Positions 15,568-64,000 of a stretch of 64,000 nt of DNA are shown here, piece by piece. Every line of letters begins with the position of its first letter. Position 1 is the stretch's first letter. The notes under the pieces are model-generated. The model was not told the DNA's origin, did no database searches, and saw only the letters and a list, made by a program, of their open reading frames with translations. This DNA is from a virus (taxonomy: Duplodnaviria > Caudoviricetes): IMG/VR virus record IMGVR_UViG_3300020404_002650, positions 1,728 through 65,727 of that record, one strand, 5' to 3'. The translations under genes and the position numbers were made by a program.

Positions 15568-18008
15568 TGCTTGAAAATTATTTAAAAGGTGATGCTTCGA
15601 CACCCAAAGCACCGGGAGGTGATAAGTCATGGACGGGACAGAATCCAGGGCCGTATCTCGGCATAGTCAAAGGCAACAAAGATCCTGCAAGGATGGGTAG
15701 GCTAAAAGTATTCATACCTACTCTTGCAAAGACTTCAGATCCTAGCGAAGATCAGTTAATCACTTGTGATTATCTCGCACCTTTTTATGGTGCTAAAGGT
15801 GGACAATTCACAAATGGTGCCAGCAGGGAATACGAAGACAGTCAACACGCTTATGGTTTTTGGGCAGTGCCACCGGATCTCGAAACAAAAGTCCTTGTGA
15901 TATTTGCTGAAGGTAAAATGGAACAGGCCTATTGGATAGGTTGCGTACAAGATCCTTTCACAAATCACATGGTACCTGGTATTGCCTCAAGTTCAAATAC
16001 ATGGGACACTGTAACAGGACAAAAATCAGGTCCACCCAGTACCGCCGAACCAAGTTTAGATAAGCAAAAAACTTACGGCACGGACAACGTTCCTGCGGGA
16101 GAGTTGAACAGGAACACACCCGGCGCACTTACTAACAACAATTATGAGTCAACACCAAAGCCAATACACCCATTTGCGGATGTCTTATTGAAGCAAGGGT
16201 TGATAGCAGATCCCGTAAGAGGCACAACTTCTTCATCGGCTAGACGTGAAACTCCAAGCCAAGTGTTTGGTATCAGCACACCAGGCAGGAAAGATAAAGG
16301 ATCACAGAAGAAAAAAGTAGGCCCGAAAAATGCTACGGCACAAGATTTTGTTTCCAGAGGTACAGGACAAACTTTTGTTATGGATGATGGTGCGATCGAC
16401 GGAACAAATCAGTTGACCAGACTAAGAACTGCGTCAGGACACCAATTATTAATGCATGACACAGAAGGTGTGGTCTATATAGCAAATGGTTCGGGAGATG
16501 CATACATAGAAATGCAATCCAACGGAAGGATAGACGTCTACTCTGGGATAGGGGGAATCAATTTAAGGACGGAAGGAGATTTCAATTTACACTCTGACGC
16601 AAACATAAACATGCACGCCAATGGACAAGTGAGATTTAGTGCCGCCAACGAAATGATTCATTCTGCGGACGCATTATTAAATTTAGGAGAAAAAGGAATA
16701 TTCAATAGTTCTCAGTCAGGTACTATAAGAGACTTTGCAAGGGACGGATTAAGTTCGTTCACCAACGGCACTCAACTTCATGGAGCAGGAGGACAGATTC
16801 ACCTTGCAGGTGCACAGGTGCATTTCAACTCGGTTGGCGCAAGTTCACAGTGGGGACCAGGTTGGCTTACGCAGGAAAAGGTCGGTATGCAACTACGAGA
16901 AGAAGGCGATGTAGAACTGACACAGAAAGGTATCAAACCTTTAGAGCAGTTTTCGAGGAAAACAAAAACTACCGTTCATAGATTTGTAACACATGAACCA
17001 ATGTTTAGGGCCAGCGTAATTACAAATGATGGCATTATACCTATTGCATCGGACGACAAAAAGCAATGGAGCAAATTGGCAAACCAACCAGGCACTCCGG
17101 AATTCCTGAACCAACAGAACAGAATAAGTGAGAATAGTTCGATCAGAGATGCACAGTACCAGGCGGACGCATTGGAATACGTAAAACAGAAAATGGGAAA
17201 TAGCACAGATGCTAAAAAAGCCAAAAAATTATTGACCGATTTTGGAACTACTTACAATGACATTTATGGAATCTCCAAAAAAGCAAATTTACCTTTTGAT
17301 CTAAAAGATAGTATTTCAGAAAAAATAAAGGGATCTCAATTTGTCACCGACGCCACAACGGTCACTGGCAAATTGACAACGCAGGTATTGGAGAACTTTA
17401 AAGGTACCAGCACAAAACTTTTCAAAGACAACGTGTTTGTGAACTCTACAGGCGAATTATTTTCATTAGGAGGAAACACTATTTCCGGAATAACGGAAAA
17501 TATAAGCATAGTAAACGATAGTTTAAATGTTGTCAAAGGACTGAAAGGAAATCTTTCTACCGATGTCACACCAACAATTGGAGCGATCAATAGCATCACG
17601 AAAACATATTCTAGTGTGGTTGGAGGCAAAATAGTTGGGATGAACCAAGTCAAGAGCCTGGCATCAAAAACAGGTTTGTTTAACGCAAGGGAGGCAGGCA
17701 TAGCAGGACAAAGTTTCCTACAGAATGTTGGAGCCAACTTAGGAACCAAAATAGGAGCAATCGGTGGTGCTGTAAAAACTTTCTTCAGTGGTTTCAAATT
17801 TAGTGACAGAAGACTCAAAGAAGATATAAGATTAATTGGCAAGTCACCGAGTGGAGTTAACATATATTCGTTTAAATACTATCAAATACCAGGCAGATAC
17901 ATTGGTGTAATGGCACAGGAAGTTCCATGGGCAAGGCACATGACCGACTATGGATATTATGCTGTTGATTACAGTAAAGTAGATGTTGAATTTAGGAGAT
18001 TAAACTAA
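15567..18008 (+). CDS. gp5/VgrG-like central spike with C-terminal S74-type intramolecular chaperone domain
   Basis: OB-fold DPARMGRLKVFIP...YGFWAVPPD...YWIG; beta-helix region FVMDDG, RLRTASGHQ; C-terminal FSDRRLKEDI...GVMAQEV...VDY. Confidence 0.8.
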   Translation: MLENYLKGDASTPKAPGGDKSWTGQNPGPYLGIVKGNKDPARMGRLKVFIPTLAKTSDPSEDQLITCDYLAPFYGAKGGQFTNGASREYEDSQHAYGFWAVPPDLETKVLVIFAEGKMEQAYWIGCVQDPFTNHMVPGIASSSNTWDTVTGQKSGPPSTAEPSLDKQKTYGTDNVPAGELNRNTPGALTNNNYESTPKPIHPFADVLLKQGLIADPVRGTTSSSARRETPSQVFGISTPGRKDKGSQKKKVGPKNATAQDFVSRGTGQTFVMDDGAIDGTNQLTRLRTASGHQLLMHDTEGVVYIANGSGDAYIEMQSNGRIDVYSGIGGINLRTEGDFNLHSDANINMHANGQVRFSAANEMIHSADALLNLGEKGIFNSSQSGTIRDFARDGLSSFTNGTQLHGAGGQIHLAGAQVHFNSVGASSQWGPGWLTQEKVGMQLREEGDVELTQKGIKPLEQFSRKTKTTVHRFVTHEPMFRASVITNDGIIPIASDDKKQWSKLANQPGTPEFLNQQNRISENSSIRDAQYQADALEYVKQKMGNSTDAKKAKKLLTDFGTTYNDIYGISKKANLPFDLKDSISEKIKGSQFVTDATTVTGKLTTQVLENFKGTSTKLFKDNVFVNSTGELFSLGGNTISGITENISIVNDSLNVVKGLKGNLSTDVTPTIGAINSITKTYSSVVGGKIVGMNQVKSLASKTGLFNAREAGIAGQSFLQNVGANLGTKIGAIGGAVKTFFSGFKFSDRRLKEDIRLIGKSPSGVNIYSFKYYQIPGRYIGVMAQEVPWARHMTDYGYYAVDYSKVDVEFRRLN

Positions 18009-18445
18009 TGGCATACGGAAGTGGAGGAGGATCAGGAGGATCGGGATCGGGATCAGGTGCACCTGGTAGCGGATCAGTTACATTTAAAGGCTTTAGTTCT
18101 CGTGCCAACCAACAGAATTTTAAACTTTATGATTTTGAAGTGGCCAAGCAGGATCTTATCAATAGGTTAAGTGTGCGTAAGGGTGAACGTGTTGAAAATC
18201 CGGAGTTTGGCACAATAATATACGATGCGATATTCGAGCCATTTACCGAAGATTTGAAAAATGCAATAATAGATGATGTGACGGATAATCTTAACGCAGA
18301 TCCAAGGATCTCAACACAAGAAATACTTGTGACAGAAGCGGACAAAGGAATAGCAATCCAAGCCACAATTACATATGTGCCGCTGAATATTACAGAGAAA
18401 TTACGGTTCAATTTCGATGAAAATTCACTATTGCGTCTTTCTTAA
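18008..18445 (+). CDS. gp25: Baseplate wedge protein
   Basis: RKGERVENPEFGT..., DPRI; N-terminal Gly/Ser extension. Confidence 0.85.
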   Translation: MAYGSGGGSGGSGSGSGAPGSGSVTFKGFSSRANQQNFKLYDFEVAKQDLINRLSVRKGERVENPEFGTIIYDAIFEPFTEDLKNAIIDDVTDNLNADPRISTQEILVTEADKGIAIQATITYVPLNITEKLRFNFDENSLLRLS

Positions 18446-18465
18446 ACTACGCACTTAATTTAAGT

Positions 18466-18473
18466 TATAAATA
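18466..18473 (+). promoter_or_regulatory. Late promoter TATAAATA
   Basis: Exact consensus 15 nt upstream of ATG 18488. Confidence 0.75.
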
Positions 18474-18487
18474 TCCATACAAACAGT

Positions 18488-21400
18488 ATGGCCACAACAG
18501 ATAGACAGAACAGATTATTAGTAGCCGAAGATTGGCGTAAGATTTATCAAGCGTTTCAACAGGCAGATTTCAAATCTTACGATTTTGAAACTTTACGTAG
18601 AACAATGGTATCTTATCTACGTGAGAATTATCCAGATGATTTCAATGACTTTGTAGAGAGTTCAGAATATGTTGCACTTATTGATTTAATTGCCTACATA
18701 GCACAGGCACTATCTTTCAGGGTAGATCTTAACGCAAGAGAAAATTTCTTAGAAACTGCCGAAAGAAGAAATTCAGTATTGAGACTAGCGAGATTAATCA
18801 ATTACAATGCCAAAAGAAATAGGCCTGCAACTGGACTTTTAAAAGTAGATTCTATATCTACAACACAAACTGTCAATGATAGTTCAGGAGCCAACCTTGC
18901 TGATCAAACTATCATATGGAATGACAGTGCTAATTCTAATTACAGACAGCAATTCACAGCAATTTTAAATGCCGCTAATCAAACAGGACAACTTTTTGGA
19001 AGTCCGAGAGAGAAGAAAACTATTGGGTCAGTGGATACGGAAGTTTACACACTATCGTCCAATCAGTCAGATCTTCCTATATACCAATTCTCCAAAGACA
19101 TCGGAGGCACGTCAAGAGTATTTGAAGTTGTGCCAAGTTCGATTAATGATTCTGACAGCATTTACGAGTCAGCACCTGTTCCTGGAACAGGCCTTACATA
19201 CACTTTTAGAAATGACGGAGCAGGCGATAGTTCAAACAACACAGGTTATTTTTTCCTTTTCAAACAAGGTACAATGGAAAACACAGAATTTACTGTCGAC
19301 ACTGCCATTACAAATTTTGTTAGAAGTTTCACTACTTCTAATGTCAATGACACGGATGTTTGGTTGTACAAGTTGGATCAGTTCGGACAAATTTTTGAAC
19401 AATGGACAAAGGTTCCTTCTTTATCCGGTAACAATGCCATATACAATTCTTTAAGCAAAGACGAAAGAAATATTTTTAACGTTGTCAGTAAGGCTGATGA
19501 CACAATAGATCTTGTCTTTGGAGATGGAAACTTTTCTAACCTGCCTCTTGGCACTTTCAGGACATACTACAGAGTATCAGACAATGCCAAGTATGCAATA
19601 CAACCAAGTGACATGCAAGGTATATCTTTGTCAGTGCCATACATTGATGCAAATGGATCACAACAGACATTGACAATGGGGATAAGTTTAAAGCAATCAG
19701 TTTACAACTCTGCCGCTTCCGAATCCAACGATTCTATTAAGGAAAAAGCAGGACAGGTATATTATTCACAGAACAGGATGATTACAGCAGAGGATTATCA
19801 AGTAGTGCCATTATCTGCTTCACAGGAAATTGTTAAAGTTAGATCTGTAAACAGAAGTGCTTCAGGTATATCAAGGGCAAAAGAAATACTTGATCCAACT
19901 GGTGCTTATTCTAATGTAAGTGTTTTTGCAGAAGACGGCATACTTTACAAAGAAGAAAGTGCTCCAACTTTTACTTTCACATTCAAAAATAAAAATGACA
20001 TTAAGTCTACTATTGATAATTCTGTCGAAACGAAAACAAAAACTGCATACGCTAGACAATTTTTCTATGACAAATATGCACAAAAAGATTTGTCAACACT
20101 TACAGCGACATGGAGTTCGTCTACTACAGGCACTAATACAAATACCGGCTTTTTCACATCGGGCGGTGCACTTGCTATAGGAGATTCGGCAACTAGTAAT
20201 TTTAAATTCGCAAAAGTTGGCTCATTAATCAAATTTACTTCTCCAGACACTAGAGAATTCTTAAATGGAAAATTAGTTACCGCAGGTACAGAAAACGCAG
20301 AAGACAGAGCATGGGCAAAGATTGGTGCTGTGGTTGGAGATGGTTCAAACAGTGGACAAGGCAATCTTGATTCTGGTGCAGGTCCTGTTACGTTGAATGA
20401 CATAGTGCCAGACGGTGCAGTAGTAAATGCTGTGATTCCAAACTACACAACTTCATTTAGTACTACACTGGAAAATGACATGATTGATAGAATTGAAAAT
20501 TACGAAGACTTTGGTTTACGATACGACATCGACAGTGAATCTTGGAAGGTAATCACAACAAATAATTTAAGTGCAAGTTCTACTTTTAGTTTGACAGCCA
20601 CAGGAAGCACGGCAGGAACAAATTTAGATGCAAGTTGGTGGTTCAAATTCACCACAGACGGAAACACATATACAGTTACGTACAGGAAATTAGATTACAT
20701 ATTTGAATCAGAAGGACAAAACAAATTTCATTTTGATGTAGAAGAAAAAATTTATGATTACAAAACCGGCAAGAGCGTTAAAGATTCTGTAAAAATTTTA
20801 AAAACAAATAGCATTGTATCAACTGGAAATGCAATTGGTTATCCAATTATGTGGCAAGTAGTCGACACGGTCACAGAAGCAGACGGATTCAGAGATAACA
20901 GGAAAGTGCAGGTTGGGTTTTTTGACGACGATGACGACGGGGTAGTAGACAATCCCGAAATATTTGATATTGTAGTAGAGCCAACTCTTTCGGTCACTAC
21001 TAAATTTGTTTTCTTTGAAAAGTATGTAAGTTATGATGACATCGAAAGATTCAGACCTTACGCGGCATCTAATTTTGTTGTAACCGAAAATGAAACAGAT
21101 ATAAATCTTGCAACAACAACTTACACAGATGGACAACTATTTTATTTCTACGCTGACACAGAAAACGTTATTAAGAAATATGACTCAAGCACTAATTCAT
21201 TGACTACAAGCACAGATTACTATGCACGTAGGGGAAGAAGTAATATAGACTTTCAATACAAGCATCATGCAGGACAAGAGACAAGAATTGACCCAAGCGT
21301 TAGTAATATTGTTGATGTGTATATGCTTGAAAGAACTTATGATAATTTGTTTAGAATATGGTTACAGGACGGCGGAGTGAAGCCGTCAGTTTCAACATCA

Positions 21401-21976
21401 GACCAGATGAGAATCAATTACTCTGGTGTGCTTAACCCACTGAAATCATTATCAGATCAGATAATTTACCATCCTGTCAAATACAAAATTTTATTTGGAT
21501 CCAACGCCCCTGAGCCACTACAGGCAACTTTTAAGGTTGTTAAAAATCCTAAAACAAATGTTACTGACGCTGTAATCAAAACAAGAGTGATTGCCGCAAT
21601 TAACGAGTTTTTTGCACTGGATAATTGGGACTTTGGAGATACTTTTTATTTTACAGAACTTGCCGCATACATTCACAAAGAACTTGCACCAGACTTGTTG
21701 ACTGCTGTGATTGTGCCTAACGAATCAGAACAGAGTTTTGGGTCTCTGTTTCAAATTAATTCAGCGGCAGACGAAATTTTCATCAGTGGGGCCACCGTTG
21801 ATGATGTATCGATTATATCAGCACTAGGAGCCAATCAACTTGCGGCTTCTGGCACTGTGGTTACATCAACATCAACCACGTCAACGAACACAACTACGGG
21901 TTCAGCAGTATCAGGCTCTACTACATCAGGATCGGGATCAAGTTCAAGTTCCGGCAGTAGTGGGGCAGGTTACTAA
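18488..21976 (+). CDS. gp6: Baseplate wedge protein (gp6/baseplate J-like), 1162 aa
   Basis: [45 protein letters not shown]. Confidence 0.85.
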
Positions 21977-51706: not shown

Positions 51707-52584
51707 GCGATTTGGATTTTGTTTATATCTCTTTCAAAGAGCCAAACAAAGAACAGAACTGGATCGACCTTAAGAACAAAGTGCCATGGGCAAAACGTGT
51801 GGATGGTGTTGTTGGGTTCGACAACGCCCACAAGGCCGCGGCGGACAAAGCGGAAACTGATTTTTTCATTAGTGTGGACGGTGACAACATAATCGACGAA
51901 AGTTTTTTATTGCAAACACTTGACTGGTCAAAAACCAACAAAGATGCAGTACACAGATGGCGGGCAAGGAACAACATCAATGGCCTTGTGTATGGCAATG
52001 GCGGTTTGGTGGGGTGGAACAAAAAGACGTGCATGGAAATGAAGACCCATGAGAACGCTGACGCAGATGAAAACCAAATAGATTTCTGTTGGGGTGTGCC
52101 ACACGAAAACCTGCACAACTGCTACTCCGAGACAGTGATAAACGCCACGCCACAGCAGGCTTTTGTGGCCGGATACAGGGAAGGCGTAAAGATGAGCACG
52201 GACAAAGGCAAGCCTATCACTGCCAAAAACTACTCTCGAACAATATGGAGGAACAATCTCAACATACTCAGTACCTGGTGCACGATCGGTGCAGATGTGG
52301 AGAATGGCAAGTATGCAATGTTGGGAGCGAGGATGGGGTGCTTCTATACGGTGCTGGAACCAAACAACGAATTTTTTAAGATAAGGGACCTCGATGAAAT
52401 GCAGAACTATTTCAACGAGATAGACAAGGATAACATTGACGAACAACTACATGCATTTGGCAATAGCCTGCGACAGCAATTGGACATACCAATTGCAGAT
52501 TACAGCGAAGAGGACAGCAGGTTCTATAGATTCATCATGCCAAGGCATATCAACAAGGGAGTGCAAGATCGTGAGTACCAGTGA
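51685..52584 (+). CDS. GT-A fold glycosyltransferase-like protein
   Basis: ISFKEP, RVDGVVG..AHKAAA, FISVDGDN (DxD), NGLVYGNGG, GYREGVKM. Confidence 0.7.
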   Translation: MADRVRISDLDFVYISFKEPNKEQNWIDLKNKVPWAKRVDGVVGFDNAHKAAADKAETDFFISVDGDNIIDESFLLQTLDWSKTNKDAVHRWRARNNINGLVYGNGGLVGWNKKTCMEMKTHENADADENQIDFCWGVPHENLHNCYSETVINATPQQAFVAGYREGVKMSTDKGKPITAKNYSRTIWRNNLNILSTWCTIGADVENGKYAMLGARMGCFYTVLEPNNEFFKIRDLDEMQNYFNEIDKDNIDEQLHAFGNSLRQQLDIPIADYSEEDSRFYRFIMPRHINKGVQDREYQ

Positions 52585-53941: not shown

Positions 53942-54540
53942 AAAGTATAGGATTTTTTGGAGACAGTTTTTGTGCAAGTAATCAACCCGAGAGTTGGTGC
54001 AATATACTTCAGGAAAAACTAGGCGCCAATCGAATAAGGTGGTTCGGTGAGCCTGGGAGAAGCATATGGAGTGCAATGTTTAGATTCAATAGATTAATAC
54101 AACAAGATAGGGTACCGGATATATCTATATTTTGCTGGACAGAGCCTTACAGATTGTACCATCCCAATTTAATTTTGAGTGCAAATACACAACCATTGGA
54201 GGGAGTAGATCCAAAAGTATATGAGACCTTAGACAACTATTGGAAATATCTACACAACTACGATAAAGACGAAATGGCATACGAATATGCCCTAAAGTAT
54301 TACGATCAAAATGTGCTGTCAAAAGTTAAAAGTGAGATAGTACAGATGTGGAGTTTCCGCCCTTTTGAAACCGCTGACAAAGATGCAGGAATAAAATTAT
54401 CCACAGGCACATTCATAGACGAAAGCATATTCGAATTTAGTGGGGGTAACGACAACTGGGGCAAAGGCACTATCAACCATATGACAGTGGAACAGAATCA
54501 ACAATGGGCAGAAAAGATTTATGGACGACTTACAATTTAA
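53938..54540 (+). CDS. SGNH/GDSL hydrolase-like protein
   Basis: FGDSF block I, WTEPYR, C-terminal NH. Confidence 0.65.
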   Translation: MKSIGFFGDSFCASNQPESWCNILQEKLGANRIRWFGEPGRSIWSAMFRFNRLIQQDRVPDISIFCWTEPYRLYHPNLILSANTQPLEGVDPKVYETLDNYWKYLHNYDKDEMAYEYALKYYDQNVLSKVKSEIVQMWSFRPFETADKDAGIKLSTGTFIDESIFEFSGGNDNWGKGTINHMTVEQNQQWAEKIYGRLTI

Positions 54541-55864
54541 AAAGCAAAAGTTAGATACTAAATCCGCAAGTTTTTGTGCGGCCAAGTGGTACAACGCAAC
54601 TATCTGGTTGGGCAGTGGTATGACCACAAGTTGCCACCATCCTTTACCTCACAAAATTGATCTTGAGGAGATCAAGACAAATCCGAGCGCCATACACAAC
54701 ACACGGCAAAAGAAAGAGCAACGTAGGCAAATGCAGTGTGGTGATAGGCCTGCAGGATGTGAATATTGCTGGAAGATAGAGGACATCGGCAGAGACGCAA
54801 TCAGTGACAGGGTATATAAATCAAAAATTTACACTGATAAGGAATTGGACGACGCATACAAATCAGATCATAACAGAAATTTTAATTTAAGGACCTTGGA
54901 AATTGCTTTTGATAGAGTGTGTCAGTTTGCCTGCACATATTGTAATCCTGCTTTTAGTACAACATGGGCAAACAACATTAAAAATCAAGGACCATATATG
55001 AGCCTAATGTCTGATGGACGTAACCACTTCACTCATGCACATGATTCAGCGGAACCATACAAAAAAGATGAGACCAATCCTTATGTCGAGGCATTTTATA
55101 AATGGTGGGAGAGCGATCTGCATAAAACACTAGACGAATTGCGTATCACGGGAGGAGAACCAATGATGTCTCCTAACCTATGGAGACTGCTTGATTGGAT
55201 AGAAACGCAAGGTGACAAAATGAGACCTGGTATGCGTATTGCAATAAATTCAAATCTTGGCGCCAAACAAAGTATTATTGATAGATTCAAAAACAAACTG
55301 AAAGGATTTAAAAACTTTCATTTGTATACAAGTTGTGAAGCAACATTTAAACAAGCAGAGTATATCAGAGATGGACTCAATTATGGAGAATGGCACTCTA
55401 ATCTGTTACATATGATGGTTGATAAAGTTCCATCTGAAATTCATAATATGTGTACCATAAATGCCTTGTGTTTAGAATCATTGCCTGAATTTTTAGAGAA
55501 AATGGTTTGGTTTAAAACAGCAAGTGCAATATATGGACCAACCATCAATTACACACTTAACATTTTGAGATTTCCTAGTTTTCAATCGCCGCTAGTACTA
55601 CCGGATGACTTAAGGAATAAATTTAAAATGGACCTGGTAAAGTTTTTAAGTAAGAATGAAAAATATTTAGAACAAATGGAAGTGAATCATACACAAAGAT
55701 TAATAGATTATTTAGATGTAGTGAAGACACCACACGCAGGTGCGGCCGAACAAAGCAAACTGCAAAAGGATTTCAAGGCATTTTACAGCCAATATGACAA
55801 ACGACAAGGAAAGGACTTTGAAAAGACTTTCCCAATTATAGGAGAATGGTACCGTGGCATATGA
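54521..55864 (+). CDS. Radical SAM enzyme 2
   Basis: CQFACTYC, GGEP; CAAKW..SCHH..CEYCW. Confidence 0.9.
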   Translation: MDDLQFKKQKLDTKSASFCAAKWYNATIWLGSGMTTSCHHPLPHKIDLEEIKTNPSAIHNTRQKKEQRRQMQCGDRPAGCEYCWKIEDIGRDAISDRVYKSKIYTDKELDDAYKSDHNRNFNLRTLEIAFDRVCQFACTYCNPAFSTTWANNIKNQGPYMSLMSDGRNHFTHAHDSAEPYKKDETNPYVEAFYKWWESDLHKTLDELRITGGEPMMSPNLWRLLDWIETQGDKMRPGMRIAINSNLGAKQSIIDRFKNKLKGFKNFHLYTSCEATFKQAEYIRDGLNYGEWHSNLLHMMVDKVPSEIHNMCTINALCLESLPEFLEKMVWFKTASAIYGPTINYTLNILRFPSFQSPLVLPDDLRNKFKMDLVKFLSKNEKYLEQMEVNHTQRLIDYLDVVKTPHAGAAEQSKLQKDFKAFYSQYDKRQGKDFEKTFPIIGEWYRGI

Positions 55865-57143
55865 TTACGGGGCAAAAGAGCCTGAAAAATTAAAAATTAA
55901 GGACATGACGGACCGTCAGAAGGAACTCCTGATAGAAAGTGACACTTTCTGTATGCTTCCTTGGATGCATCTCCATGCATACCCTGATGGCAGGGCATAC
56001 CCTTGTTGTTTTAGTTTTGATCGCTATCCGGTTGGAGACTTCAACAAAAACAGTATGAAGGAAGTTTTCAACAATGATAAAATGAAGGAAATGCGTAGGA
56101 ACATGTTGTCAGGTAAGAAATGCAAACAGTGTGTGAAGTGTTATGACCAAGAAGACTCAGGGTTCTTTTCATTGCGTTTAAGTTCAAACAAGCATTTTGG
56201 ACACAACATTGATTTAGTAGATTCAACCCAAGCAGACGGTACCGCAGACTTTGTAATGAAATATTGGGATATAAGATTTAGCAATATATGTAATTTTGCA
56301 TGTAGAAGTTGTGGAACATGGTTTAGTTCTAATTGGTATGAGGATCATATTAAAATAAATGGTGGCCCACCTAACCATGCCAAGATAATAAAAGTTGGCA
56401 GGAAAGCAGACGATATGTGGGAACAGGTTTTGGAAAATATCGATCATGCTGAACAATTTTATTTTGCAGGTGGAGAACCATTGATAATGGAAGAGCATTA
56501 TAGGATTTTAAAAGAATTAGATAGAAGAAAGGCATATCATATTAGATTGATATACAATACTAATTTTTCACGCCTTAAATTCAAAGACATGGATGTATTA
56601 GAATTATGGAATAAATTTGATTCTGTATCTGTTGGTGCCAGTCTTGACGCTGAAGGGCCACGTGCAGAGTTGATGCGTACCGGCACTAAATGGGAACAGA
56701 CTATTGCCAATAGAAAAAGAATGATGGAAGTATGTCCAAAGGTCGACTTTTATATTTCTTCGACTGTGAGTCTTCCAAATGCATTTCACGTTGCAGACTT
56801 TCATAGGAGTTGGGTAGAGCAAGGCCTAATCAAACCACAGGATTTTAACTATAACCTTTTACAAATGCCAACTTGGCAAAGAATGGACATTCTTCCATTA
56901 GAATTTAAAGAACAGATCAAAGAAAAATATACAACACATTTAAAATGGTTAAAGGAACAGGATCATCTTACTCGTGCTAGTAAGGGATATGAATCTGCTT
57001 TGGATTGGATGTTCAAGAAAGATAATACTAGGCATCTTCCATGGTTTTTTGAAAGAACGAAGAAGTATGACGAAGTAAGAAATGAAAAATTTATAGAGGT
57101 GTTCCCTGAATGGAAGGAACTTTTTGACAAATATGACAAATAG
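55854..57143 (+). CDS. Radical SAM enzyme 3
   Basis: CNFACRSC, GGEP; CMLPW..PCC..CVKC. Confidence 0.9.
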   Translation: MAYDYGAKEPEKLKIKDMTDRQKELLIESDTFCMLPWMHLHAYPDGRAYPCCFSFDRYPVGDFNKNSMKEVFNNDKMKEMRRNMLSGKKCKQCVKCYDQEDSGFFSLRLSSNKHFGHNIDLVDSTQADGTADFVMKYWDIRFSNICNFACRSCGTWFSSNWYEDHIKINGGPPNHAKIIKVGRKADDMWEQVLENIDHAEQFYFAGGEPLIMEEHYRILKELDRRKAYHIRLIYNTNFSRLKFKDMDVLELWNKFDSVSVGASLDAEGPRAELMRTGTKWEQTIANRKRMMEVCPKVDFYISSTVSLPNAFHVADFHRSWVEQGLIKPQDFNYNLLQMPTWQRMDILPLEFKEQIKEKYTTHLKWLKEQDHLTRASKGYESALDWMFKKDNTRHLPWFFERTKKYDEVRNEKFIEVFPEWKELFDKYDK

Positions 57144-58470
57144 GATCAAACCTAATGAGGGCAATAAAACATTTTGCATGGCCCCGTGGACACACACTTA
57201 CCTATCCCCACAGATGGAGAGAAGGTTGTGTTGCAGTTCTAGAGAGTCATCGGAAAACTTCAAGCAATACATAGACACGATAGATCCAAAAGGACACAAT
57301 GATAAGATAAATCTTACCTCACTAGAACAACACTGGAATTCAGACTATATGAAAAGCGTGAGGTTAAAGTTATTAGCAGGCGAAGAAATACCGCAGTGTG
57401 CTGTGTGCAATCACAAACTATTAAATGAACAGGTATATAGGCAACACTTCAATTGGCTGTATAGAAATAAAATTGACGAAGCATTTGACAGCACAGACGA
57501 AACAGGTGCCACGACTATGCAGACAGAAAGTTTTGATTATAGATTTTCTAACCTGTGCAACTTCAGTTGTAGGATGTGTGGCGATATGTTAAGCAGTAGT
57601 TGGGAAACTGAAAACAAAAAACACGGAAAAGGCGACTACGAAAATTATAGGATCTGGGGCAGGAAAGATATCAAAGAACAATTATCTAAATTCCACGATC
57701 AACAAATAGTAAAAGAATTTACACAGGCAGTTGAGCAAAAACGTATCACAGAATTATATTGGTGCGGAGGAGAACCGTTGATGTGGAAAATACATTGGGA
57801 AGCAATGAAGAGGATCATTGAACTAGGCTATCAGGACCAAGTACTAGCAAGGTACAACTCAAACATGAGTAGAATACATTTTTACAAATACAACTTGTTT
57901 GATGATATATTGAAACACTTTCCAAAATTCCAAATATGTGCTTCCATCGATGGCACTGGGGAAATTGGAGAATACATCAGGACAGGATTGAAGTATGACG
58001 AATGGTTGTCAAACATGAAGTACGGTCTGCAATTTGTCAAACAGGAACAACAGAGAATGCAGTTGGACTTAACAATTACGTTGCCAGGTTTGTTCGACCT
58101 AGAAAACATGGTATTGTTAAGCAACGAATTGAACATTGAATTGCTTACAAAACAAGTGTTCAATTTCTCGCATGACAACGCAATGGCGCCACTGTTCATG
58201 CCTTATGATATTATGAGTGAGATAATAGATGACGCAAGAGAAAAAACTATCAAATACAAAAACTGGAAGTTGAACAACTTTTTTGGCCAATTGGAAGAAA
58301 TGCAAAAACAAAAAAGGAATAATGAACTGGTATATGACGAACAAACTTATAAGCAAGGTCAAAAACAAGGCAAAGCAGAAGTCGAAAGATTAGATAAAAT
58401 TAGAGGCACAGATATCAAAAAGATACTGTCTAAAAACAAAAGGGCATTGGAGTGGTGGACAAGTATCTAA
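57133..58470 (+). CDS. Radical SAM enzyme 4
   Basis: CNFSCRMC, GGEP; CMAPW..LCC..CAVC. Confidence 0.9.
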   Translation: MTNRIKPNEGNKTFCMAPWTHTYLSPQMERRLCCSSRESSENFKQYIDTIDPKGHNDKINLTSLEQHWNSDYMKSVRLKLLAGEEIPQCAVCNHKLLNEQVYRQHFNWLYRNKIDEAFDSTDETGATTMQTESFDYRFSNLCNFSCRMCGDMLSSSWETENKKHGKGDYENYRIWGRKDIKEQLSKFHDQQIVKEFTQAVEQKRITELYWCGGEPLMWKIHWEAMKRIIELGYQDQVLARYNSNMSRIHFYKYNLFDDILKHFPKFQICASIDGTGEIGEYIRTGLKYDEWLSNMKYGLQFVKQEQQRMQLDLTITLPGLFDLENMVLLSNELNIELLTKQVFNFSHDNAMAPLFMPYDIMSEIIDDAREKTIKYKNWKLNNFFGQLEEMQKQKRNNELVYDEQTYKQGQKQGKAEVERLDKIRGTDIKKILSKNKRALEWWTSI

Positions 58471-59618
58471 AATCAAACATTTGTCCATTGCCATGGACGC
58501 ATCTCGAGGTGGATGTAAATGGAGGTGCATCTCCTTGTTGTCTATACAAGGGAAGTGTACCTGGTGTAAAGGTCTATGAGCAGAGTTTGAAATCCATTCA
58601 AGACAGTGAGTATATGGACAAACTTCGAGAAAAATTCCGTAAGGGCGAGAGACCAAGTGGCTGTGCAAACTGTTGGGCGGAAGAGGACGCAGGCAAGACA
58701 AGTAAAAGGCAAAATTCATTGTACAAGATGTCAAAAACTTTGAAAGACTGGACACCTAGTAGCGAGCCAAATCTCAAATTCATAGACTTTAAGTTAGGCA
58801 ACGTGTGTAATTTAAAGTGCAGAATCTGTGGATCGTGGAGTTCGTCTAAATGGGCTCAAGAAGAAATGGACTATGGCGACAATCCTGTGGCACTAAAAAA
58901 TTTACGTGAGGGCGGCTGGCCAAAACGTAATCCGCAATTTTTTGAGGAGTTACAGGAAGACCTCAAGCACGTGGAGTATTTTGAATTCACTGGAGGCGAA
59001 CCTTTCATGATCAAGGACCATTTCAAGATACTGATGCACTGCGTTGAGAAGGGATATGCAAAGAACATCGATATACATTACAATACCAACGGAACGCAAC
59101 TTCCACCACAGGAAATTTTTGATCTGTGGTCATACTTTAAGCACGTCGAAATAGCATTTTCGATAGACGACATAGGACCTGCTTTTGAATATCAGAGGCA
59201 TCCTGCCAATTGGCGTGAGGTAAGTGCAAACCTGGTCAAGTTCAAGGAACGCAAAACAGAAAACATGGATTTCCAGATATGCACAACTGTATCAATATTC
59301 AATGTGTTCAATTGGGCCAAGATAGCATTGTGGGTCGCCCAGTATCAGCCAAAATTTTTCTATGTAAACACCTGCTTCGATCCGGATGTGTTTAACATAC
59401 AAACTCTGCCACAGCAAATAAAAGACATCGTTGATACGAGATATCATATGTTGACGGATTTCCAACCATCATTGAGGTACATGAATGCGGCTGACAGAGA
59501 TACACCGGAAATACGTGAACAAAGGAAAGCAAGGATATTGCAGACTGACAAGTACAGGAAAGAAAATTTTGGAGATACGTTTCCACTTTTAAATAAGGTT
59601 TTACAAATATATGAATAA
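58452..59618 (+). CDS. Radical SAM enzyme 5
   Basis: CNLKCRIC, GGEP, YNTNG; CPLPW..PCC..CANCW. Confidence 0.9.
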   Translation: MVDKYLKSNICPLPWTHLEVDVNGGASPCCLYKGSVPGVKVYEQSLKSIQDSEYMDKLREKFRKGERPSGCANCWAEEDAGKTSKRQNSLYKMSKTLKDWTPSSEPNLKFIDFKLGNVCNLKCRICGSWSSSKWAQEEMDYGDNPVALKNLREGGWPKRNPQFFEELQEDLKHVEYFEFTGGEPFMIKDHFKILMHCVEKGYAKNIDIHYNTNGTQLPPQEIFDLWSYFKHVEIAFSIDDIGPAFEYQRHPANWREVSANLVKFKERKTENMDFQICTTVSIFNVFNWAKIALWVAQYQPKFFYVNTCFDPDVFNIQTLPQQIKDIVDTRYHMLTDFQPSLRYMNAADRDTPEIREQRKARILQTDKYRKENFGDTFPLLNKVLQIYE

Positions 59619-60381
59619 AAAACTTTTGATATCGGGTTGCAGTTATGGGGTGGTGTATTCAGAGATACAGGATGATCTTAAAAAGATTTTCAACGTAGAT
59701 GAAGTTGTGAATTTGTCACAGAATGGCGGATCTCCGGACAGGGCAATCAGGGTAGCAATAGAATGGATAGCACAAAACGGCAAACCTGACATGTTGATAC
59801 TGCCCGTAAGTCATTACAATAGATTTGATTTGCCAATCGCAGAACGGATGGATCCTTTACACAATTTGCATTTTAGGTCTACCTGGCATATGGATCTTAG
59901 CAAAAATTATGGTTCTGCTACGCCTATCGATCCAAAATTTGATAGAGATAATCTACAAACATTTTTAAAGACGGGAGTGCTAGTTCATCAAAATGATTAC
60001 CCGGCACACGATTATTTGTTCGTAAAACTAATAACATTCCAATCATTTTTACAACTTAACAAAATTAAGCACTTGATTTTTGATACAGGAAACTATTATG
60101 AAAAGTTATGGAATACACAACAACCAGGAATGCAAAAAAGAAAATTGATTGAGAACTGCAAAGGCATTTACAAACTATTTTCTTTTTGTTCTAATGTGTG
60201 GATGTATAACCAACTGACAGATAAAGAAAAAATAGATTACATACCCTGGTGGAAGCCACAGGGGAAAAAGCCATTGGGTAAGATAGTACCAGATACCGTT
60301 GCCGCGACAATACATTTCCAAAAGCAAGAAGTGGTAAAACTTATGCAACATCTGAAAAAGGAAGGAGCAGTGCATGAGTAA
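59611..60381 (+). CDS. SGNH hydrolase-like protein
   Basis: ISGCSY, NLSQNGGS, C-terminal His. Confidence 0.6.
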   Translation: MNKKLLISGCSYGVVYSEIQDDLKKIFNVDEVVNLSQNGGSPDRAIRVAIEWIAQNGKPDMLILPVSHYNRFDLPIAERMDPLHNLHFRSTWHMDLSKNYGSATPIDPKFDRDNLQTFLKTGVLVHQNDYPAHDYLFVKLITFQSFLQLNKIKHLIFDTGNYYEKLWNTQQPGMQKRKLIENCKGIYKLFSFCSNVWMYNQLTDKEKIDYIPWWKPQGKKPLGKIVPDTVAATIHFQKQEVVKLMQHLKKEGAVHE

Positions 60382-61189
60382 TAAAAAATTTATAGCAGGC
60401 GGTTGTAGTTTTACTTTCGGGCATGAACTTGGAGACGAGCAGGACGGCAAAGTGCCATCTAAGAAATCATGGGCCTATAGACTGTATGACCAAATTCCAG
60501 ATAAAGACAAAACATTCATTAACACCGCATGCGGTGGCATAGGCAACTGTGGAATAGCAAGGAGGGTATTTCAGGAAGTATCAAAGCATCCGCCAATGGA
60601 CATAGGCGGCGTGTTTGTGATGTGGACATTTGCTTCAAGGTATGACTGGGCATTTCCTAGGTATGCAGGGTTGGAAAACAGCAGGTGGGCATCTATCACT
60701 CCATGGGACACAAAGATGGGTTTTGAGGAGAGGCACAAGGCACTTGCAAATTCTGAAATTCAACAACAGCAATATGACAGTAGATCTCAAAAATACCAAA
60801 AGGCAGGTGTGGCGCCATTTGCAGATGCATTGTACAGGTACGCCGCAAACCAGTTCCATGAACTATATCTAACCTACAACGCTATTATTTGGTTACAGAA
60901 TCTTTTACAAAAAAAGAAAATACCATTTATGTTTACTCTGGCCGACAATAGCCTGTTCTACGATAAGATGGAGGAACACAGGAAACACGAGCCGTTGTTG
61001 AATGCACTACACAACGAAATTGATTTTACCAGATGGGCAAGTTTTGGTGAAAGAATGATGGGATTCAACCAATGGTCTTTGTTGAATGATTACGAAAGAG
61101 GGACAACACATCCACTAGACAAAGCACACAGAGATGCTATAATGTTATTGTTACCAAAGTTTAAAGAATACATAGGAGAAAAGAAATGA
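60374..61189 (+). CDS. SGNH hydrolase-like protein
   Basis: GGCSFTFG, N.A.GG.GN, MWT...R, THP...H. Confidence 0.7.
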   Translation: MSNKKFIAGGCSFTFGHELGDEQDGKVPSKKSWAYRLYDQIPDKDKTFINTACGGIGNCGIARRVFQEVSKHPPMDIGGVFVMWTFASRYDWAFPRYAGLENSRWASITPWDTKMGFEERHKALANSEIQQQQYDSRSQKYQKAGVAPFADALYRYAANQFHELYLTYNAIIWLQNLLQKKKIPFMFTLADNSLFYDKMEEHRKHEPLLNALHNEIDFTRWASFGERMMGFNQWSLLNDYERGTTHPLDKAHRDAIMLLLPKFKEYIGEKK

Positions 61190-61291: not shown

Positions 61292-61969
61292 ATGGAAATT
61301 CTGAATAGAGAGAAACTGAAAGAAGTTTTGCAAAGATGGAAAGAGCATCCATCTATTACAGGACTTATGGAAAAATTTTCACAGTTGCAATCATACACAA
61401 ACAAAAATTACAAAAATTTAGAATTATATACTAAACAGAAAATCAAAGAATCAAAATACGAACTGGTCGAATTGCCATACATTGATGTCTCGGAAGATCC
61501 TGTGCGACCTGAACTAGACTTGGCTTTTAGGCAATCTTATGGTAGAAAGATTTACGGTTTGAAAGACGATGTTGGAGAAATATCTGCTGTGATGTGTTTT
61601 GCATTTACTAATGAAGTACCAAAAACAATAGAAGAAATGGATAGTTTAAGTTATGACGCCGCTTTACAATCAGTACACAGGGCAGGTATACAAGGTTCAA
61701 TAGCCATAGCCTACACTGTGTGGGCAAAGAAAAAAGGCGGTGGTAGGGCCATAGTCAACGAGGTGTATAAAATGGTCAAAAAGTCAAATCATTTAAATCG
61801 ATTGGTTACACTATCTCCTCTTACAAAAATGGCAAGGAATTTTCATATTAAAAATGGTGCTAAAGAATTACAAGTAAATGAAAAATCACAAAATTTTGAA
61901 TATGATATTACATTAGAAGATTGGGAAACAGCACTAGTAAAAGCAAAAGGATTTCTAAAAGTCAAATGA
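61292..61969 (+). CDS. Hypothetical protein, GNAT-like C-terminus
   Basis: EDPVRP, AYTVW...GGGR, LVTLSP...RNFHIKNGA. Confidence 0.55.
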   Translation: MEILNREKLKEVLQRWKEHPSITGLMEKFSQLQSYTNKNYKNLELYTKQKIKESKYELVELPYIDVSEDPVRPELDLAFRQSYGRKIYGLKDDVGEISAVMCFAFTNEVPKTIEEMDSLSYDAALQSVHRAGIQGSIAIAYTVWAKKKGGGRAIVNEVYKMVKKSNHLNRLVTLSPLTKMARNFHIKNGAKELQVNEKSQNFEYDITLEDWETALVKAKGFLKVK

Positions 61970-62301
61970 ATTGTCTAGGATTATTTTTAGCAGTGTCCAT
62001 GCACGTGGGCCTCGAAGCAAATTACAACAACATACATCCTCACGCAAGATGCACAGTAGATAACAAAATAGCAGGTGTGTTTTATAATTCAGAAGATAAA
62101 GCAAGTGCCTATGTGGGTCGACAGTTTGAGTTGGACGAATATTGGAATTTGGAATTAGGACTTGTTACAGGATATGATCACGGCACAGTGGTACCAATGG
62201 TAAGATACAAAGCAGGTGGCCTCTTTATATCTCCTGCATATGAACGTCATAACGGTGATGAAAATTACGGAATTGTAATAGGCTGGGAAATAGGAAAATG
62301 A
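61966..62301 (+). CDS. Small putative outer-membrane beta-barrel protein (PagP-like motifs)
   Basis: Hydrophobic N-terminus, SMH...YNNIHP, GVFYNS, LGLVTGY, alternating beta pattern. Confidence 0.4.
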   Translation: MNCLGLFLAVSMHVGLEANYNNIHPHARCTVDNKIAGVFYNSEDKASAYVGRQFELDEYWNLELGLVTGYDHGTVVPMVRYKAGGLFISPAYERHNGDENYGIVIGWEIGK

Positions 62302-62732
62302 AGATATTGATCATGGGCCTGCCAGGTTCGGGCAAAACGACTTTGGCAAAACTACTTGCACCAATGTTTAACGCTGTCTATATAAATGGCGATGAAGTAA
62401 GGAAGGATGCCGACGATTGGGATTTCACAGCAGAAGGCAGGAATAGGCAATCCTTGAGGATGTGGACGTTGGCAGAGGAGGCCATTGATGCCAACAGGAC
62501 CGTTGTAGCAGACTTTATCTGTCCAACAGAAGAGACCAGGAAACAATTTGGTGCAGATTATACAGTATGGATGGATACTATCAAAGAAGGAAAATACGAA
62601 GACACAAATAAAATGTTCGAAGCACCTAGCAAATATGATTTTAAAGTTGGACACATGGAAGCAGACATGTGGGCATTTCTTATTAAACAAGACATATTAG
62701 ACATGCATGGCAACCTAGGACCACACAGATGA
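62298..62732 (+). CDS. cysC: Adenylyl-sulfate kinase-like P-loop kinase (short)
   Basis: GLPGSGKTT, NGDEVR, DF...GR, DFICP, FEAP. Confidence 0.75.
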   Translation: MKILIMGLPGSGKTTLAKLLAPMFNAVYINGDEVRKDADDWDFTAEGRNRQSLRMWTLAEEAIDANRTVVADFICPTEETRKQFGADYTVWMDTIKEGKYEDTNKMFEAPSKYDFKVGHMEADMWAFLIKQDILDMHGNLGPHR

Positions 62733-64000
62733 GAATATTAGGAATAAATTGCATGAATCATGATGCCGCAATGTCGGTTGTCGATTACAGTTCAGGCATT
62801 GGTGAAGTGCTGTGGGCCGCACACTCAGAACGTTATTCCAAAGTAAAAAATGATCATTACTTAAATTGGGCGATAGTAAATGAAGCAAACACTTATGGTC
62901 CATTTGACAAAGTTGTGTACTATGAAAAACCTTGGTTGAAGAAAACAAGGCAGTTGTACGCCGGACAATGGGCAGATGCGTTCAGTTACACCGAACTGCC
63001 ACAATGGCATCTGGATCATTTCAATATTAAAATAGATGAATATGTAAAACATCACGACTCACATGCCGCGGCAGGATATTTTACGTCGCCGTTTAGAGAA
63101 GCAACAATACTTACAGTAGACGCCATAGGTGAATGGGACACTGTGTCGATATCGACTGCAGAAAAAATATGGATAGAAAGAAAAGAAACAATAAAGTACC
63201 CACACAGTTTAGGTATACTTTATTCAGCCTTTACACATCGTTGTGGATTGAAGCCTGCAGAAGAAGAATACATCCTAATGGGTATGGCCGCGTATGGTGA
63301 ACCAAAATACAAAGATGACATATACAATGATTTTGTACATCAGTCACCTTTGAAACTAAAACAAAATCTACATAGAGGATTAAGTGACTGGCACCCGGAA
63401 GCAGACCCAATGGACCTTGCGGCCAGCATACAGGCAGTCACAGAAGAATGCCTAGCAGATTTATGGAAACGTGCCAGCAAATATGGATCACGTAATTTGG
63501 TATATGCAGGTGGAGTAGCACTGAATTGTGCGGCCAACAAAGTACTTGCAAATTTAGGTTTGTTCGACAACATATGGATAATACCAAATCCGGGCGATGC
63601 AGGAAGTTCGTTGGGTTGCATAGCCGCACACCAGAAATCATTTATCAATTGGAAGAGTCCATTCCTTGGACACAACATAGAAGGTGAGTATCCTGTGGAC
63701 GCAATTATAAAAGAATTGAAAGAAAATAAAATGGTGGGAGTTGCAAATGGTAAGGCAGAGTTTGGACCAAGAGCCCTTGGTAATAGATCGCTTTTAGCCG
63801 ACCCTAGGGGTGAGGACATCAAGGATCTGGTAAATGCAATCAAGAAGAGACAGAAGTTCAGACCATTCGCTCCAGCCATATTAGAAGAGGATGTAAACGA
63901 CTATTTTGCCCTCCCTACAGGCGTCAAAAACACCCCTTATATGCAATATACAGCGGCGTACACGCATGGTAAAGACTGTCCTGCCATATTGCATCACGAT
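62729..64000 (+). CDS. O-carbamoyltransferase (NodU/CmcH/TobZ family), truncated at window end
   Basis: MRILGINCMNHDAA, ERYSKVKND, HHDSHAAAG, VDAIGE, MGMAAYG, GGVALNC, GDAG, EFGPRALGNRS, RPFAP. Confidence 0.92.
   Translation, partial: MRILGINCMNHDAAMSVVDYSSGIGEVLWAAHSERYSKVKNDHYLNWAIVNEANTYGPFDKVVYYEKPWLKKTRQLYAGQWADAFSYTELPQWHLDHFNIKIDEYVKHHDSHAAAGYFTSPFREATILTVDAIGEWDTVSISTAEKIWIERKETIKYPHSLGILYSAFTHRCGLKPAEEEYILMGMAAYGEPKYKDDIYNDFVHQSPLKLKQNLHRGLSDWHPEADPMDLAASIQAVTEECLADLWKRASKYGSRNLVYAGGVALNCAANKVLANLGLFDNIWIIPNPGDAGSSLGCIAAHQKSFINWKSPFLGHNIEGEYPVDAIIKELKENKMVGVANGKAEFGPRALGNRSLLADPRGEDIKDLVNAIKKRQKFRPFAPAILEEDVNDYFALPTGVKNTPYMQYTAAYTHGKDCPAILHHD

Follow-up and report, generated by a model that had tools for sequence, protein, structure and literature searches.

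A conserved fibre-linked block of glycosyltransferase and N-terminal-twitch radical SAM genes in a marine jumbo phage

The stretch of DNA analysed here, hereafter the window, is a 64-kb portion (bases 1728–65727) of the 65.7-kb linear IMG/VR contig IMGVR_UViG_3300020404_002650, which belongs to an uncultured marine jumbo T4-like phage. CheckV gives the completeness of the record as 18%, and thus the genome is expected to be about 350 kb. Between 12226 and 64000 all sizeable open reading frames (ORFs) are on the + strand, separated by short gaps or overlapping slightly, and about 25 enzyme genes are found here among the tail-fibre and baseplate genes, 15 of them backed by a family or a fold and about 11 plausible from motifs or weak matches. 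A preliminary description of the window had taken them for one island encoding one system. The region instead consists of two separate units, a variable accessory cassette placed between tail-fibre paralogues (38047–46871, here called island 1) and a conserved, syntenic block that runs from 48506 to the contig end (here called module 2). Fibre-linked islands of enzymes have been described in marine myophages, and the present variant has at its centre a family of N-terminal-twitch radical S-adenosylmethionine (SAM) enzymes that is unstudied. The enzymes probably form a set for building and tailoring sugars, and we tentatively lean toward a structural protein of the phage as their acceptor.

The conserved enzyme block

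A search anchored on a radical SAM gene returned 80 viral loci, many of them cut by contig ends, and the counts taken from these loci are therefore lower bounds. Genes are named below by their first base. Module 2 contains the following features:

48506–49480, + strand: Ser/Thr/Asn-rich fibre-associated protein, always positioned between the last fibre gene and the glycosyltransferase (GT) genes
49555–49875, + strand: small conserved protein of 106 amino acids (aa), in 40 of the 80 loci, with a weak homologue in Ralstonia phage RsoM2USA
49872–50624 and 50617–51402, + strand: pair of putative GT-A proteins, GT8/glycogenin-like paralogues (hhalign 98%; model and Foldseek)
51395–51706, + strand: small conserved protein of 103 aa, in 36 of the 80 loci
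51649–52584, + strand: putative GT-A domain with a C-terminal helical domain, in 72 of the 80 loci, the most conserved enzyme of the block besides the radical SAM proteins
52436–59618, + strand: five paralogous N-terminal-twitch radical SAM proteins, 52436, 54521, 55854, 57124 and 58452 (NCBIfam NF033640)
53938–54540, + strand: GDSF-motif protein (FGDSF), between the first two radical SAM genes
59611–61189, + strand: two SGNH-like proteins, 59611 and 60374, with GCS instead of GDS in block I (hhalign 80% to each other)
61292–62301, + strand: 225-aa protein without a family, and 126-aa protein with a PagP-like PHROG match
62298–62732, + strand: P-loop kinase of APS-kinase/AAA_33 type, 144 aa (APS_kinase, PF01583, 37.7 bits)
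62729–64000, + strand: NodU/CmcH/TobZ carbamoyltransferase, cut by the contig end (Carbam_trans_N 144.1 bits, Carbam_trans_C 98.5 bits)

The five radical SAM genes are each matched in 79–80 of the 80 loci, 51649 in 72, each member of the GT8-like pair in 62, 60374 in 59 and the carbamoyltransferase in 57, and a homologue of the tail-fibre gene 46882 lies upstream in 57. Gene order is unchanged down to relatives whose radical SAM protein is about 50% identical, including a contig of 354 kb. Loci collected with the structural gene 34633 reveal the plan of the clade, in which 34633 is followed by one to five fibre paralogues, then by 48506 and then by the GT genes; where the 10-kb flank is complete, in 44 loci, a GT of the block is reached in 25, and in the others shown the flank is full of fibre paralogues. 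The block from 48506 on is therefore a conserved part of the fibre module. In a close relative (L002) an epimerase/dehydratase gene (146.7 bits) comes directly after the carbamoyltransferase, just past the point where the present contig ends. The clade is very common in aquatic metagenomes, as two structural-gene queries each returned at least 600 matches in IMG/VR.

The same arrangement extends to one cultured phage. In a collection of 50,697 phage records RsoM2USA alone has homologues of both 50617 and 51649, and the radical SAM protein is matched by four records only. In RsoM2USA the baseplate genes are followed by the wedge protein ORF362, the giant protein 361, a protein with the fibre N-terminal domain (355), a 49555-like protein (354), the GT8-like pair (353 and 352), the 51649 homologue (350), a radical SAM protein (349), a paralogue of 51649 (348) and a homologue of the island 1 gene 38645 (347); ORF358, an NAD-dependent epimerase/dehydratase (179.5 bits), lies inside this fibre/GT stretch. 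Identities to the window are 30–52% for the enzymes and 22–38% for the structural proteins (36–38% for the wedge protein). Because of this collinearity, and because the enzymes are at least as similar as the structural proteins, the GT and radical SAM part appears to behave like an inherited component of the structural module, and the SGNH and carbamoyl part appears able to move. The linkage between enzymes and structural genes that had been noticed in the window thus holds for the GT and radical SAM part as far as RsoM2USA. Complete unlinking of the block in that phage was considered and rejected, since the SGNH/carbamoyltransferase part alone lies elsewhere. The paper describing RsoM2USA mentions neither radical SAM nor carbamoyl, and its virion gel names only the neighbours ORF356, 359 and 361 and no protein of the block.

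All five radical SAM proteins belong to NF033640 (N_Twi_rSAM), scoring 325.8, 294.7, 413.4, 309.8 and 372.6 bits against a curated cut-off of 170, and they can be aligned with one another at about 20–32% identity. The cysteines of the CxxxCxxC motif (C146, C150 and C153) are invariant in eight sequences, together with C33, C52, C93 and C96. Pfam SPASM matches fall at residues 11–96, and the N-terminal region aligns with the twitch domain of BtrN (E-value, E, 0.005). The start of 52436 is probably later than its ORF suggests, because the NF033640 profile aligns from residue 66. The nearest solved relatives, reached through weak matches (E 2e-4 to 7e-3), are viperin, tetraether lipid synthase, BtrN and cytosylglucuronate (blasticidin) decarboxylase; these act on nucleotides, sugars or lipid and not on peptides. 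A phrase search of the literature returned no paper about the family, as judged by titles and the start of abstracts.

The GT families were aligned from related contigs and two of them were folded, so that the fold assignments come from models only, and the positions of the Asp motifs are those of the alignments. The model of the 50617 family (confidence, pLDDT, 93) is matched by Foldseek to glycogenin with E 5e-8 and a TM-score of about 0.5, and 49872 is homologous to 50617 (hhalign 98%). The model of the 51649 family (pLDDT 90) resembles B4GALNT1 with a VIA Z of 10.4 over 143 aligned residues at a root-mean-square deviation of 3.0, and the chlorovirus PBCV-1 capsid glycosyltransferase A64R (PDB 2p72) with a VIA Z of 8.4. 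D77-G-D79 is invariant in the 51649 family, and the 49872 family likewise keeps D97 and D99 throughout; a plain DxD is missing from the 50617 family, whose invariant Asp residues include D89 and D97. No Pfam match, Glyco_transf_8 included, was found at E <= 0.01 for 49872, 50617 or 51649. Profile searches of PDB sequences reached glycogenin at E 0.5 only with the 50617 family and nothing meaningful with the 49872, 51649 and 60374 families.

The SGNH-like proteins, the P-loop kinase and the carbamoyltransferase would serve to tailor the sugar. The three SGNH-like candidates, 53938, 59611 and 60374, have no Pfam match that reaches a cut-off and no Pfam GDSL match; 59611 shows a DUF6071 match at E 4e-4, 60374 carries GGxGN and DKAH motifs, and relatives have at this position paralogues that carry GDSF, with matches to DUF6071 (42.9 bits) and Lipase_GDSL_2 (E 1.6e-4). 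When the SGNH-like families were compared by hhalign with three bacterial GDSL proteins, the best E was 0.002. The APS_kinase match of 62298 spans profile positions 5–91 of 152 and generic P-loop families score alike; in distant relatives the kinase homologue comes after the carbamoyltransferase. The 126-aa protein at 61921–62301 matches a PHROG labelled PagP-like (E 5e-10) and, following an internal Met, has a stretch that resembles a signal peptide. Vibrio phage K566 also has a gene of this PHROG label, near its radical SAM genes.

Bacterial counterparts of the block were sought with NF033640 in 401 sampled Bacteroidota genomes, of which five match at E <= 1e-30 and four exceed the cut-off. 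One of these four is a metagenome-assembled genome (MAG), G001, in which the matching contig, of 7.7 kb, is probably phage DNA, and a scan of genome contigs with the radical SAM protein likewise found only three short MAG contigs, probably phage DNA as well. In three genomes (G081, G153 and G285) the family occurs in arrays beside PhyH/WelO5 oxygenases, methyltransferases, GDSL proteins anchored by transmembrane (TM) segments, carbamoyltransferases, a GT2-methyltransferase fusion, a GT11-like protein, FdtA and a B12 radical SAM protein, and thus the toolkit resembles a bacterial glycan or natural-product neighbourhood. In G081 a fibre-like surface protein of 842 aa (L185:8076–10604), with a Peptidase_S74 endosialidase-chaperone domain and a type IX secretion sorting tail, adjoins a pair of N-twitch radical SAM genes.

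It is well supported, from sequence families and modelled folds, that the enzymes are a predicted set for building and tailoring sugars, as the preliminary description had supposed. This reading follows from the GT-A folds, from the epimerase/dehydratase genes in the block of L002 and RsoM2USA, which would act on sugars linked to nucleoside diphosphates, from the solved relatives of the radical SAM proteins, and from the bacterial counterparts next to FdtA, GT2 and GT11-like proteins.

Structural genes and the variable island

PHROGs matches identify baseplate hub, wedge and virion proteins across 12226–21976, and the structural genes that lead up to the enzymes are as follows:

18008–18445, + strand: baseplate wedge subunit with a Gly/Ser-rich N-terminus (phrog_43 and phrog_261, E ~1e-12)
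18488–21976, + strand: gp6-like baseplate wedge protein (phrog_10646, E 5e-287; jumbo-phage homologues)
21976–34623, + strand: giant structural protein of 4215 aa (Pfam FG-GAP repeats and two CBM5/12 carbohydrate-binding modules; recurring GDGSTxxF domain-start motif)
34633–35358, + strand: conserved structural protein of phrog_11259 whose 23-aa Ser/Thr tail ends in NTGY (PHROGs)
35362–36579, + strand: tail-fibre paralogue 1 (PHROG fibre/baseplate matches; blastp to 46882)
36626–38084, + strand: two proteins without a family, 36626–37561 and 37614–38084, retained alongside island 1 in four close relatives (L084–L087)
46882–48504, + strand: tail-fibre paralogue with a C-terminal region like an intramolecular chaperone (Peptidase_G2 IMC match; ATAAATA upstream)

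The wedge protein is 32–39% identical to those of the jumbo phages Atu_ph07, PA5oct, SCTP-2 and the Rak2-like group, and 34633 belongs to the core proteins of the Rak2-like and Atu_ph07-like jumbo phages. The first 1000 aa of the giant protein match 389 phage records, mostly cyanophages, where it is called a virion structural protein wherever annotated. The two fibres 35362 and 46882 have in common an N-terminal domain of about 300 aa (43% identity over 302 aa by blastp); in loci L092–L171 one to five such paralogues are found per phage, alike in this domain and diverging in the remainder. The proteins 36626–37561 and 37614–38084 have no family match in PHROGs or Pfam. The GC content of the window stays at 36–46% all along, no tRNA gene was found in it, and a megablast search of 24 kb against the phage collection gave no match.

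Island 1 lies between the two fibre genes and is divided as follows:

38047–40718, + strand: first part of island 1, with GT-A-like 38047, 38645, nitroreductase-like 39298 and GT-A-like 40008 (PHROGs, Atlas, weak profile matches)
40715–41278, + strand: membrane fatty-acid-desaturase-like protein of 187 aa with three His boxes (Pfam FA_desaturase 32.7 bits; NCBIfam DesA family, weak)
41226–46871, + strand: second part of island 1, with 41226, 42314, 43158, 44441, four HxD...H candidates and 41794, which has no family (Pfam, motif patterns)

The island is complete in the four close relatives L084–L087 only, partial in L094 and L095, and weakly matched in L119–L121. Its position is the slot that is filled by extra fibre genes in other relatives, and for this reason it is regarded as a variable cassette. 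The desaturase is the only gene of the island with a clear predicted substrate class, a membrane lipid. In the second part, 41226 (48.1 bits) and 42314 (47.7 bits) are oxygenases of the Asp_Arg_Hydrox family (Asp/Asn beta-hydroxylase type) and 43158 is of TauD type (92.7 bits). The HxD...H pattern of 43969, 45061, 45524 and 45987 is invariant in five to seven sequences, and two of the four have weak hhalign links (E 0.003–0.006); in the Atlas, 45987 is associated with no named family except DUF6445, on 14% of one cluster. In the first part, 38047 has a PHROG glycosyltransferase match (E 2e-4), the Atlas neighbours of 40008 are named nucleotide-diphospho-sugar transferase, and the two are weakly linked by hhalign (within E 0.003–0.006). 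The family of 38645–39301 has 1449 homologues in public metagenomes, and none of the 120 listed carries a Pfam domain or an informative name; besides its place after a radical SAM gene and the 51649 paralogue in RsoM2USA, a homologue lies near radical SAM genes in L077. Island 1 may extend the chemistry of module 2, or it may act on lipids or the envelope of the host.

The preliminary inventory, which counted about 25 modification enzymes in one orientation among fibre and baseplate genes, was near right, with all of them on the + strand and about 11 known from motifs or weak matches. The 15 that are backed are the five N-twitch radical SAM proteins, three oxygenases dependent on iron and 2-oxoglutarate (Fe/2OG), the desaturase (32.7 bits against a cut-off of 29.7), one methyltransferase, the carbamoyltransferase, the P-loop kinase and three GT-A proteins. 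The radical SAM proteins, the desaturase and the carbamoyltransferase keep the identity first given to them. The five GT-A proteins are reduced to 49872, 50617 and 51649 by fold or homology, leaving 38047 and 40008 as leads, and the seven Fe/2OG or cupin oxygenases to the three of the second part that pass a Pfam cut-off and four recognised by pattern. Of two methyltransferases 44441 is slightly above one Pfam cut-off and 38645 reaches only E 0.11; the nitroreductase fold of 39298 (E 0.049, below cut-off) is likewise a lead. The three SGNH proteins have block-I motifs, mutual hhalign similarity and GDSF or DUF6071 counterparts in relatives, and lack a Pfam match at cut-off. What was called an APS kinase is a P-loop kinase that exceeds the Pfam cut-off over part of the profile. 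Neither a sulfotransferase nor an ATP sulfurylase was identified among the scanned ORFs of the window, and so the sulfation that this kinase was thought to feed is without support here.

Acceptor of the predicted sugar

We hold, with slightly less than even confidence, that the acceptor would be a structural protein of the phage and the product a decorated virion, as gene content and gene order suggest. From the observed families, folds, synteny and conservation we infer an order of steps, together with its sugar substrates, late co-expression and acceptor. In the cytoplasm, three soluble GT-A enzymes would build up a sugar structure with nucleotide sugars as donors, probably late in infection. 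The five N-twitch radical SAM proteins, esterases or acyltransferases of SGNH type, the P-loop kinase and the O-carbamoyltransferase would then edit this sugar. As acceptor we consider most likely a structural protein synthesised simultaneously, whether a fibre, a baseplate protein or the product of 48506. A virion target is favoured because fibre linkage is deep and collinear across phages of very different habitats, because membrane anchors are lost and no protein like a flippase, polymerase or ligase is present in the window, and because late-promoter-like motifs precede structural genes only. A hydropathy survey predicted TM-like segments in the desaturase 40715 and in no other enzyme, and it revealed in the window no membrane protein resembling a flippase, polymerase or ligase and no exporter.

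The promoter-like motifs are TATAAATA, of T4 late type, or ATAAATA, at 12175–12182, 18466–18473, 34620–34626 and 46868–46874. In this order they lie 5–50 bases 5' of the first gene of the baseplate, the gene of the wedge protein, 34633 and fibre gene 46882, with TATAAATA at 18466 preceding the wedge gene and ATAAATA preceding the fibre gene, and none is found before an enzyme gene. TATAAATA occurs four times in the window against 3.6 expected, so that it is not over-represented and its placement alone is suggestive; scans for sigma-70 promoters and terminators were uninformative. From this placement the enzyme genes would seem to belong to a late structural transcription unit and to be expressed late together with it. 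Among RNA-library contigs of one marine metatranscriptome study, those from two runs of one sample are identical to 48339–49063, where the fibre gene ends and 48506 begins, and a third run, made on another sample, covers 48906–49082; smaller pieces that are identical or differ at up to three positions fall in several enzyme genes. Such contigs cannot prove transcription, and carry-over of DNA is possible.

Several observations weigh against a virion acceptor. The preliminary description had named DGST repeats and Ser/Thr tails ending in GY as acceptor sites. DG[ST] is indeed enriched in the giant protein (29 occurrences against about 5 expected), yet it recurs as (T/K)GDGST..(F/Y) at the opening of domains that are repeated (a weak DUF2460 match overlaps one of them), and is thus a motif of the fold and not a disordered acceptor repeat. 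The tails are real and conserved on two proteins. The last ~45 residues of the wedge protein (21840–21976) consist of Ser, Thr and Gly only and end in GAGY; a terminal GSSG(A/S/T)GY is present in 70 of 71 complete homologues at 72–92% identity, the linker being variable, and the tail is also kept in L271, altered (GGYSY) at 47% identity, and absent at 41% identity (G407) and in RsoM2USA. For 34633 the tail (35287–35358) was seen in 26 close relatives, in one of which it ends in TY; 57 more distant relatives lack it, and one further locus is incomplete. Neither tail co-varies with the enzyme block across relatives: G407, without the tail, retains N-twitch radical SAM proteins and carbamoyltransferases, RsoM2USA retains the GT/radical SAM block, and several contigs with a tail-less 34633 homologue do have the block. 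Among the 374 ORFs of G408, a relative of 262 kb, that encode 100 aa or more, a tail of this type is found just once. The tails are therefore a conserved oddity of two baseplate proteins and not a virion-wide signal. To the same side belong a second locus of RsoM2USA about 90 kb away, where SGNH-like, radical SAM and carbamoyltransferase genes are found (ORF199–203; ORF199 is 44% identical to 62729), and the cultured phages PA5oct, Atu_ph07 and the Rak2-like group, which have the same structural core without the module, so that the latter is not needed to build such a virion. The membrane desaturase of island 1 and the PagP-labelled protein point in this direction too. GT8 enzymes are best known from the synthesis of lipopolysaccharide (LPS). 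Finally, the published readings of similar clusters are a change of the host O-chain or capsule, or a metabolite (PMC7029224; PMC7824862).

Remodelling of the host surface, by which an altered LPS O-chain, core or capsule would block superinfection or the re-adsorption of progeny to lysed cells, is possible and in our view holds perhaps a quarter of the ground. In pelagimyophages and cyanomyophages, fibre-linked islands with GT8 and radical SAM cassettes have been read as O-chain modification (PMC7029224), and decoration of the capsule has been argued in section 3.4.10 of PMC7824862. The bacterial counterparts of the toolkit carry TM-anchored GDSL and multi-TM proteins, which suggests envelope glycans, and both the PagP-labelled protein within the block and, in island 1, the membrane desaturase and the Asp_Arg_Hydrox oxygenases, which we take to be LpxO-type, would fit the same target. 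Host glycans vary, yet from marine phages to a Ralstonia phage the same gene order and 30–52% identity are kept by the GT8 pair, the 51649 protein and the radical SAM protein; the phage enzymes of the block have no membrane anchor and no flippase, polymerase or ligase beside them; and an apparent late structural transcription unit, judged by the promoter-like motifs, would be late for superinfection exclusion. Carbamoyltransferases of TobZ type belong to antibiotic pathways, and it is conceivable, though rather unlikely, that the product is a soluble secondary metabolite, such as an aminoglycoside-like or nucleoside-sugar antibiotic, a signal or a cofactor, attached to neither virion nor envelope. 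Viperin, BtrN and blasticidin decarboxylase use free nucleotides or sugars, and a protein of the WelO5-type halogenase family and B12 radical SAM proteins in the bacterial neighbourhoods are typical of natural-product clusters. A metabolite has in fact been proposed for the carbamoyltransferase and 2-oxoglutarate/iron oxygenase clusters of jumbo cyanophages (Iyer et al., 2021, PMC7824862). Such a product would leave three to five GTs and their strict linkage to fibre genes unexplained, and neither a scaffold-forming enzyme (a cyclase, a non-ribosomal peptide synthetase or a polyketide synthase) nor an exporter was seen in the window.

Two further targets would put the radical SAM proteins to other use. 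They might modify fibre or baseplate proteins directly, by cross-links, epimerisation or methylation, with the GTs acting separately. SPASM/twitch radical SAM proteins include many peptide maturases, the genes adjoin fibre genes, and 55854 and 58452 weakly match NCBIfam sactipeptide, ranthipeptide and sulfatase maturases; these matches are far under the cut-offs, however, neither a domain like the RRE recognition domain nor a precursor-like peptide was found, and in bacteria the family travels with sugar enzymes, so that we regard this as improbable. We consider it very improbable that kinase, transferases, radical SAM proteins and carbamoyltransferase hypermodify the phage DNA. Hypermodification pathways of thymidine and cytosine do use P-loop kinases, glycosyltransferases and radical SAM enzymes, but family scans of the window revealed no TET/JBP-type oxygenase or base hydroxymethylase, the kinase 62298 matches APS kinase/AAA_33 families only, and the block lies in the structural module and not among replication genes.

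Returning to a decorated virion, a bolder version of it may be considered, which is attractive and rather improbable. The glycogenin-like GTs might prime a sugar chain on baseplate or fibre proteins, in one subclade with the mucin-like Ser/Thr tails, perhaps their terminal tyrosine, as acceptors, and the radical SAM proteins, esterases and carbamoyltransferase might rewrite the sugars without oxygen, which would be an undescribed kind of virion glycosylation. The occurrence of a conserved terminal tyrosine beside glycogenin-like enzymes is suggestive in this regard. If true, a very common group of jumbo phages of the ocean would wear a coat of unusual chemistry, by which adsorption is tuned or the fibres are protected.

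Comparison with known systems

The clade devotes 15–25 kb beside its host-recognition genes to this enzyme set, and our search found no tested member of the N-twitch radical SAM family at its core. Whatever the acceptor, its identification would yield a reaction for an unstudied radical SAM family, explain why carbamoyltransferase and oxygenase genes recur in marine myophages, and test the decoration of particles by phages outside the actinobacteriophages; as the block is present in a cultured phage, RsoM2USA, the question is testable. A literature search found no paper that joins jumbo phage, radical SAM and glycosyltransferase.

The closest described arrangement is the host recognition cluster (HRC) of pelagimyophages and cyanomyophages, likewise an island of the structural region with tail fibres, GTs (GT8 being the commonest) and radical SAM cassettes (Zaragoza-Solas et al., 2020, PMC7029224). 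The paper also lists an aspartyl/asparaginyl beta-hydroxylase, core to all, and a stearoyl-CoA desaturase, and does not place them in the island. The HRC is described as hypervariable and non-syntenic, whereas here this is true of island 1 alone and the GT/radical SAM/carbamoyltransferase block is conserved and syntenic in dozens of contigs. The HRC is bounded by two genes, VrlC and gp14, the latter a neck gene (PMC7029224); in the present phage the gp14 side lies beyond the contig, and a VrlC label is absent among the 20 of 389 giant-protein matches listed. The GTs of the HRC are assigned to a proposed change of the host O-chain (PMC7029224). Unlike the HRC phages, the present one is a jumbo phage, and its structural proteins are most similar to those of PA5oct, Atu_ph07 and the Rak2-like group. 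The second gene cluster of jumbo cyanophages likewise combines methyltransferases and carbamoyltransferases with hydroxylases of the Fe/2OG and cupin types, a set interpreted as tailoring sugars or amino acids (Iyer et al., 2021, PMC7824862). In the main text of that paper neither radical SAM nor SGNH appears and a linkage of the cluster to fibres is not discussed, and the product proposed is capsule decoration or a halogenated metabolite.

For virion glycosylation itself the nearest systems are those of mycobacteriophages and PBCV-1, in which virus-encoded GT-A enzymes lie next to structural genes as they do here, and which lack the radical SAM, SGNH and carbamoyl tailoring set. Glycosylation of the mycobacteriophage capsid and tail tube was reportedly described by Freeman and colleagues in 2023, and the acceptors are said to be Ser/Thr-rich C-terminal extensions, resembling the tails of the present phage. 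In the present phage such tails occur on no more than two proteins, both of the baseplate, and their presence does not follow that of the enzymes across relatives. As for island 1, lipid desaturases encoded by cyanophages were reportedly described by Roitman and colleagues in 2018; the present putative desaturase is also a phage-borne membrane protein with three His boxes in a marine myovirus, and it differs in its length of 187 aa and in its place in a fibre-flanked cassette. The catalogue family NF033640, to which the radical SAM proteins belong with all five scores over the cut-off, is represented here by a fixed array of five old paralogues.

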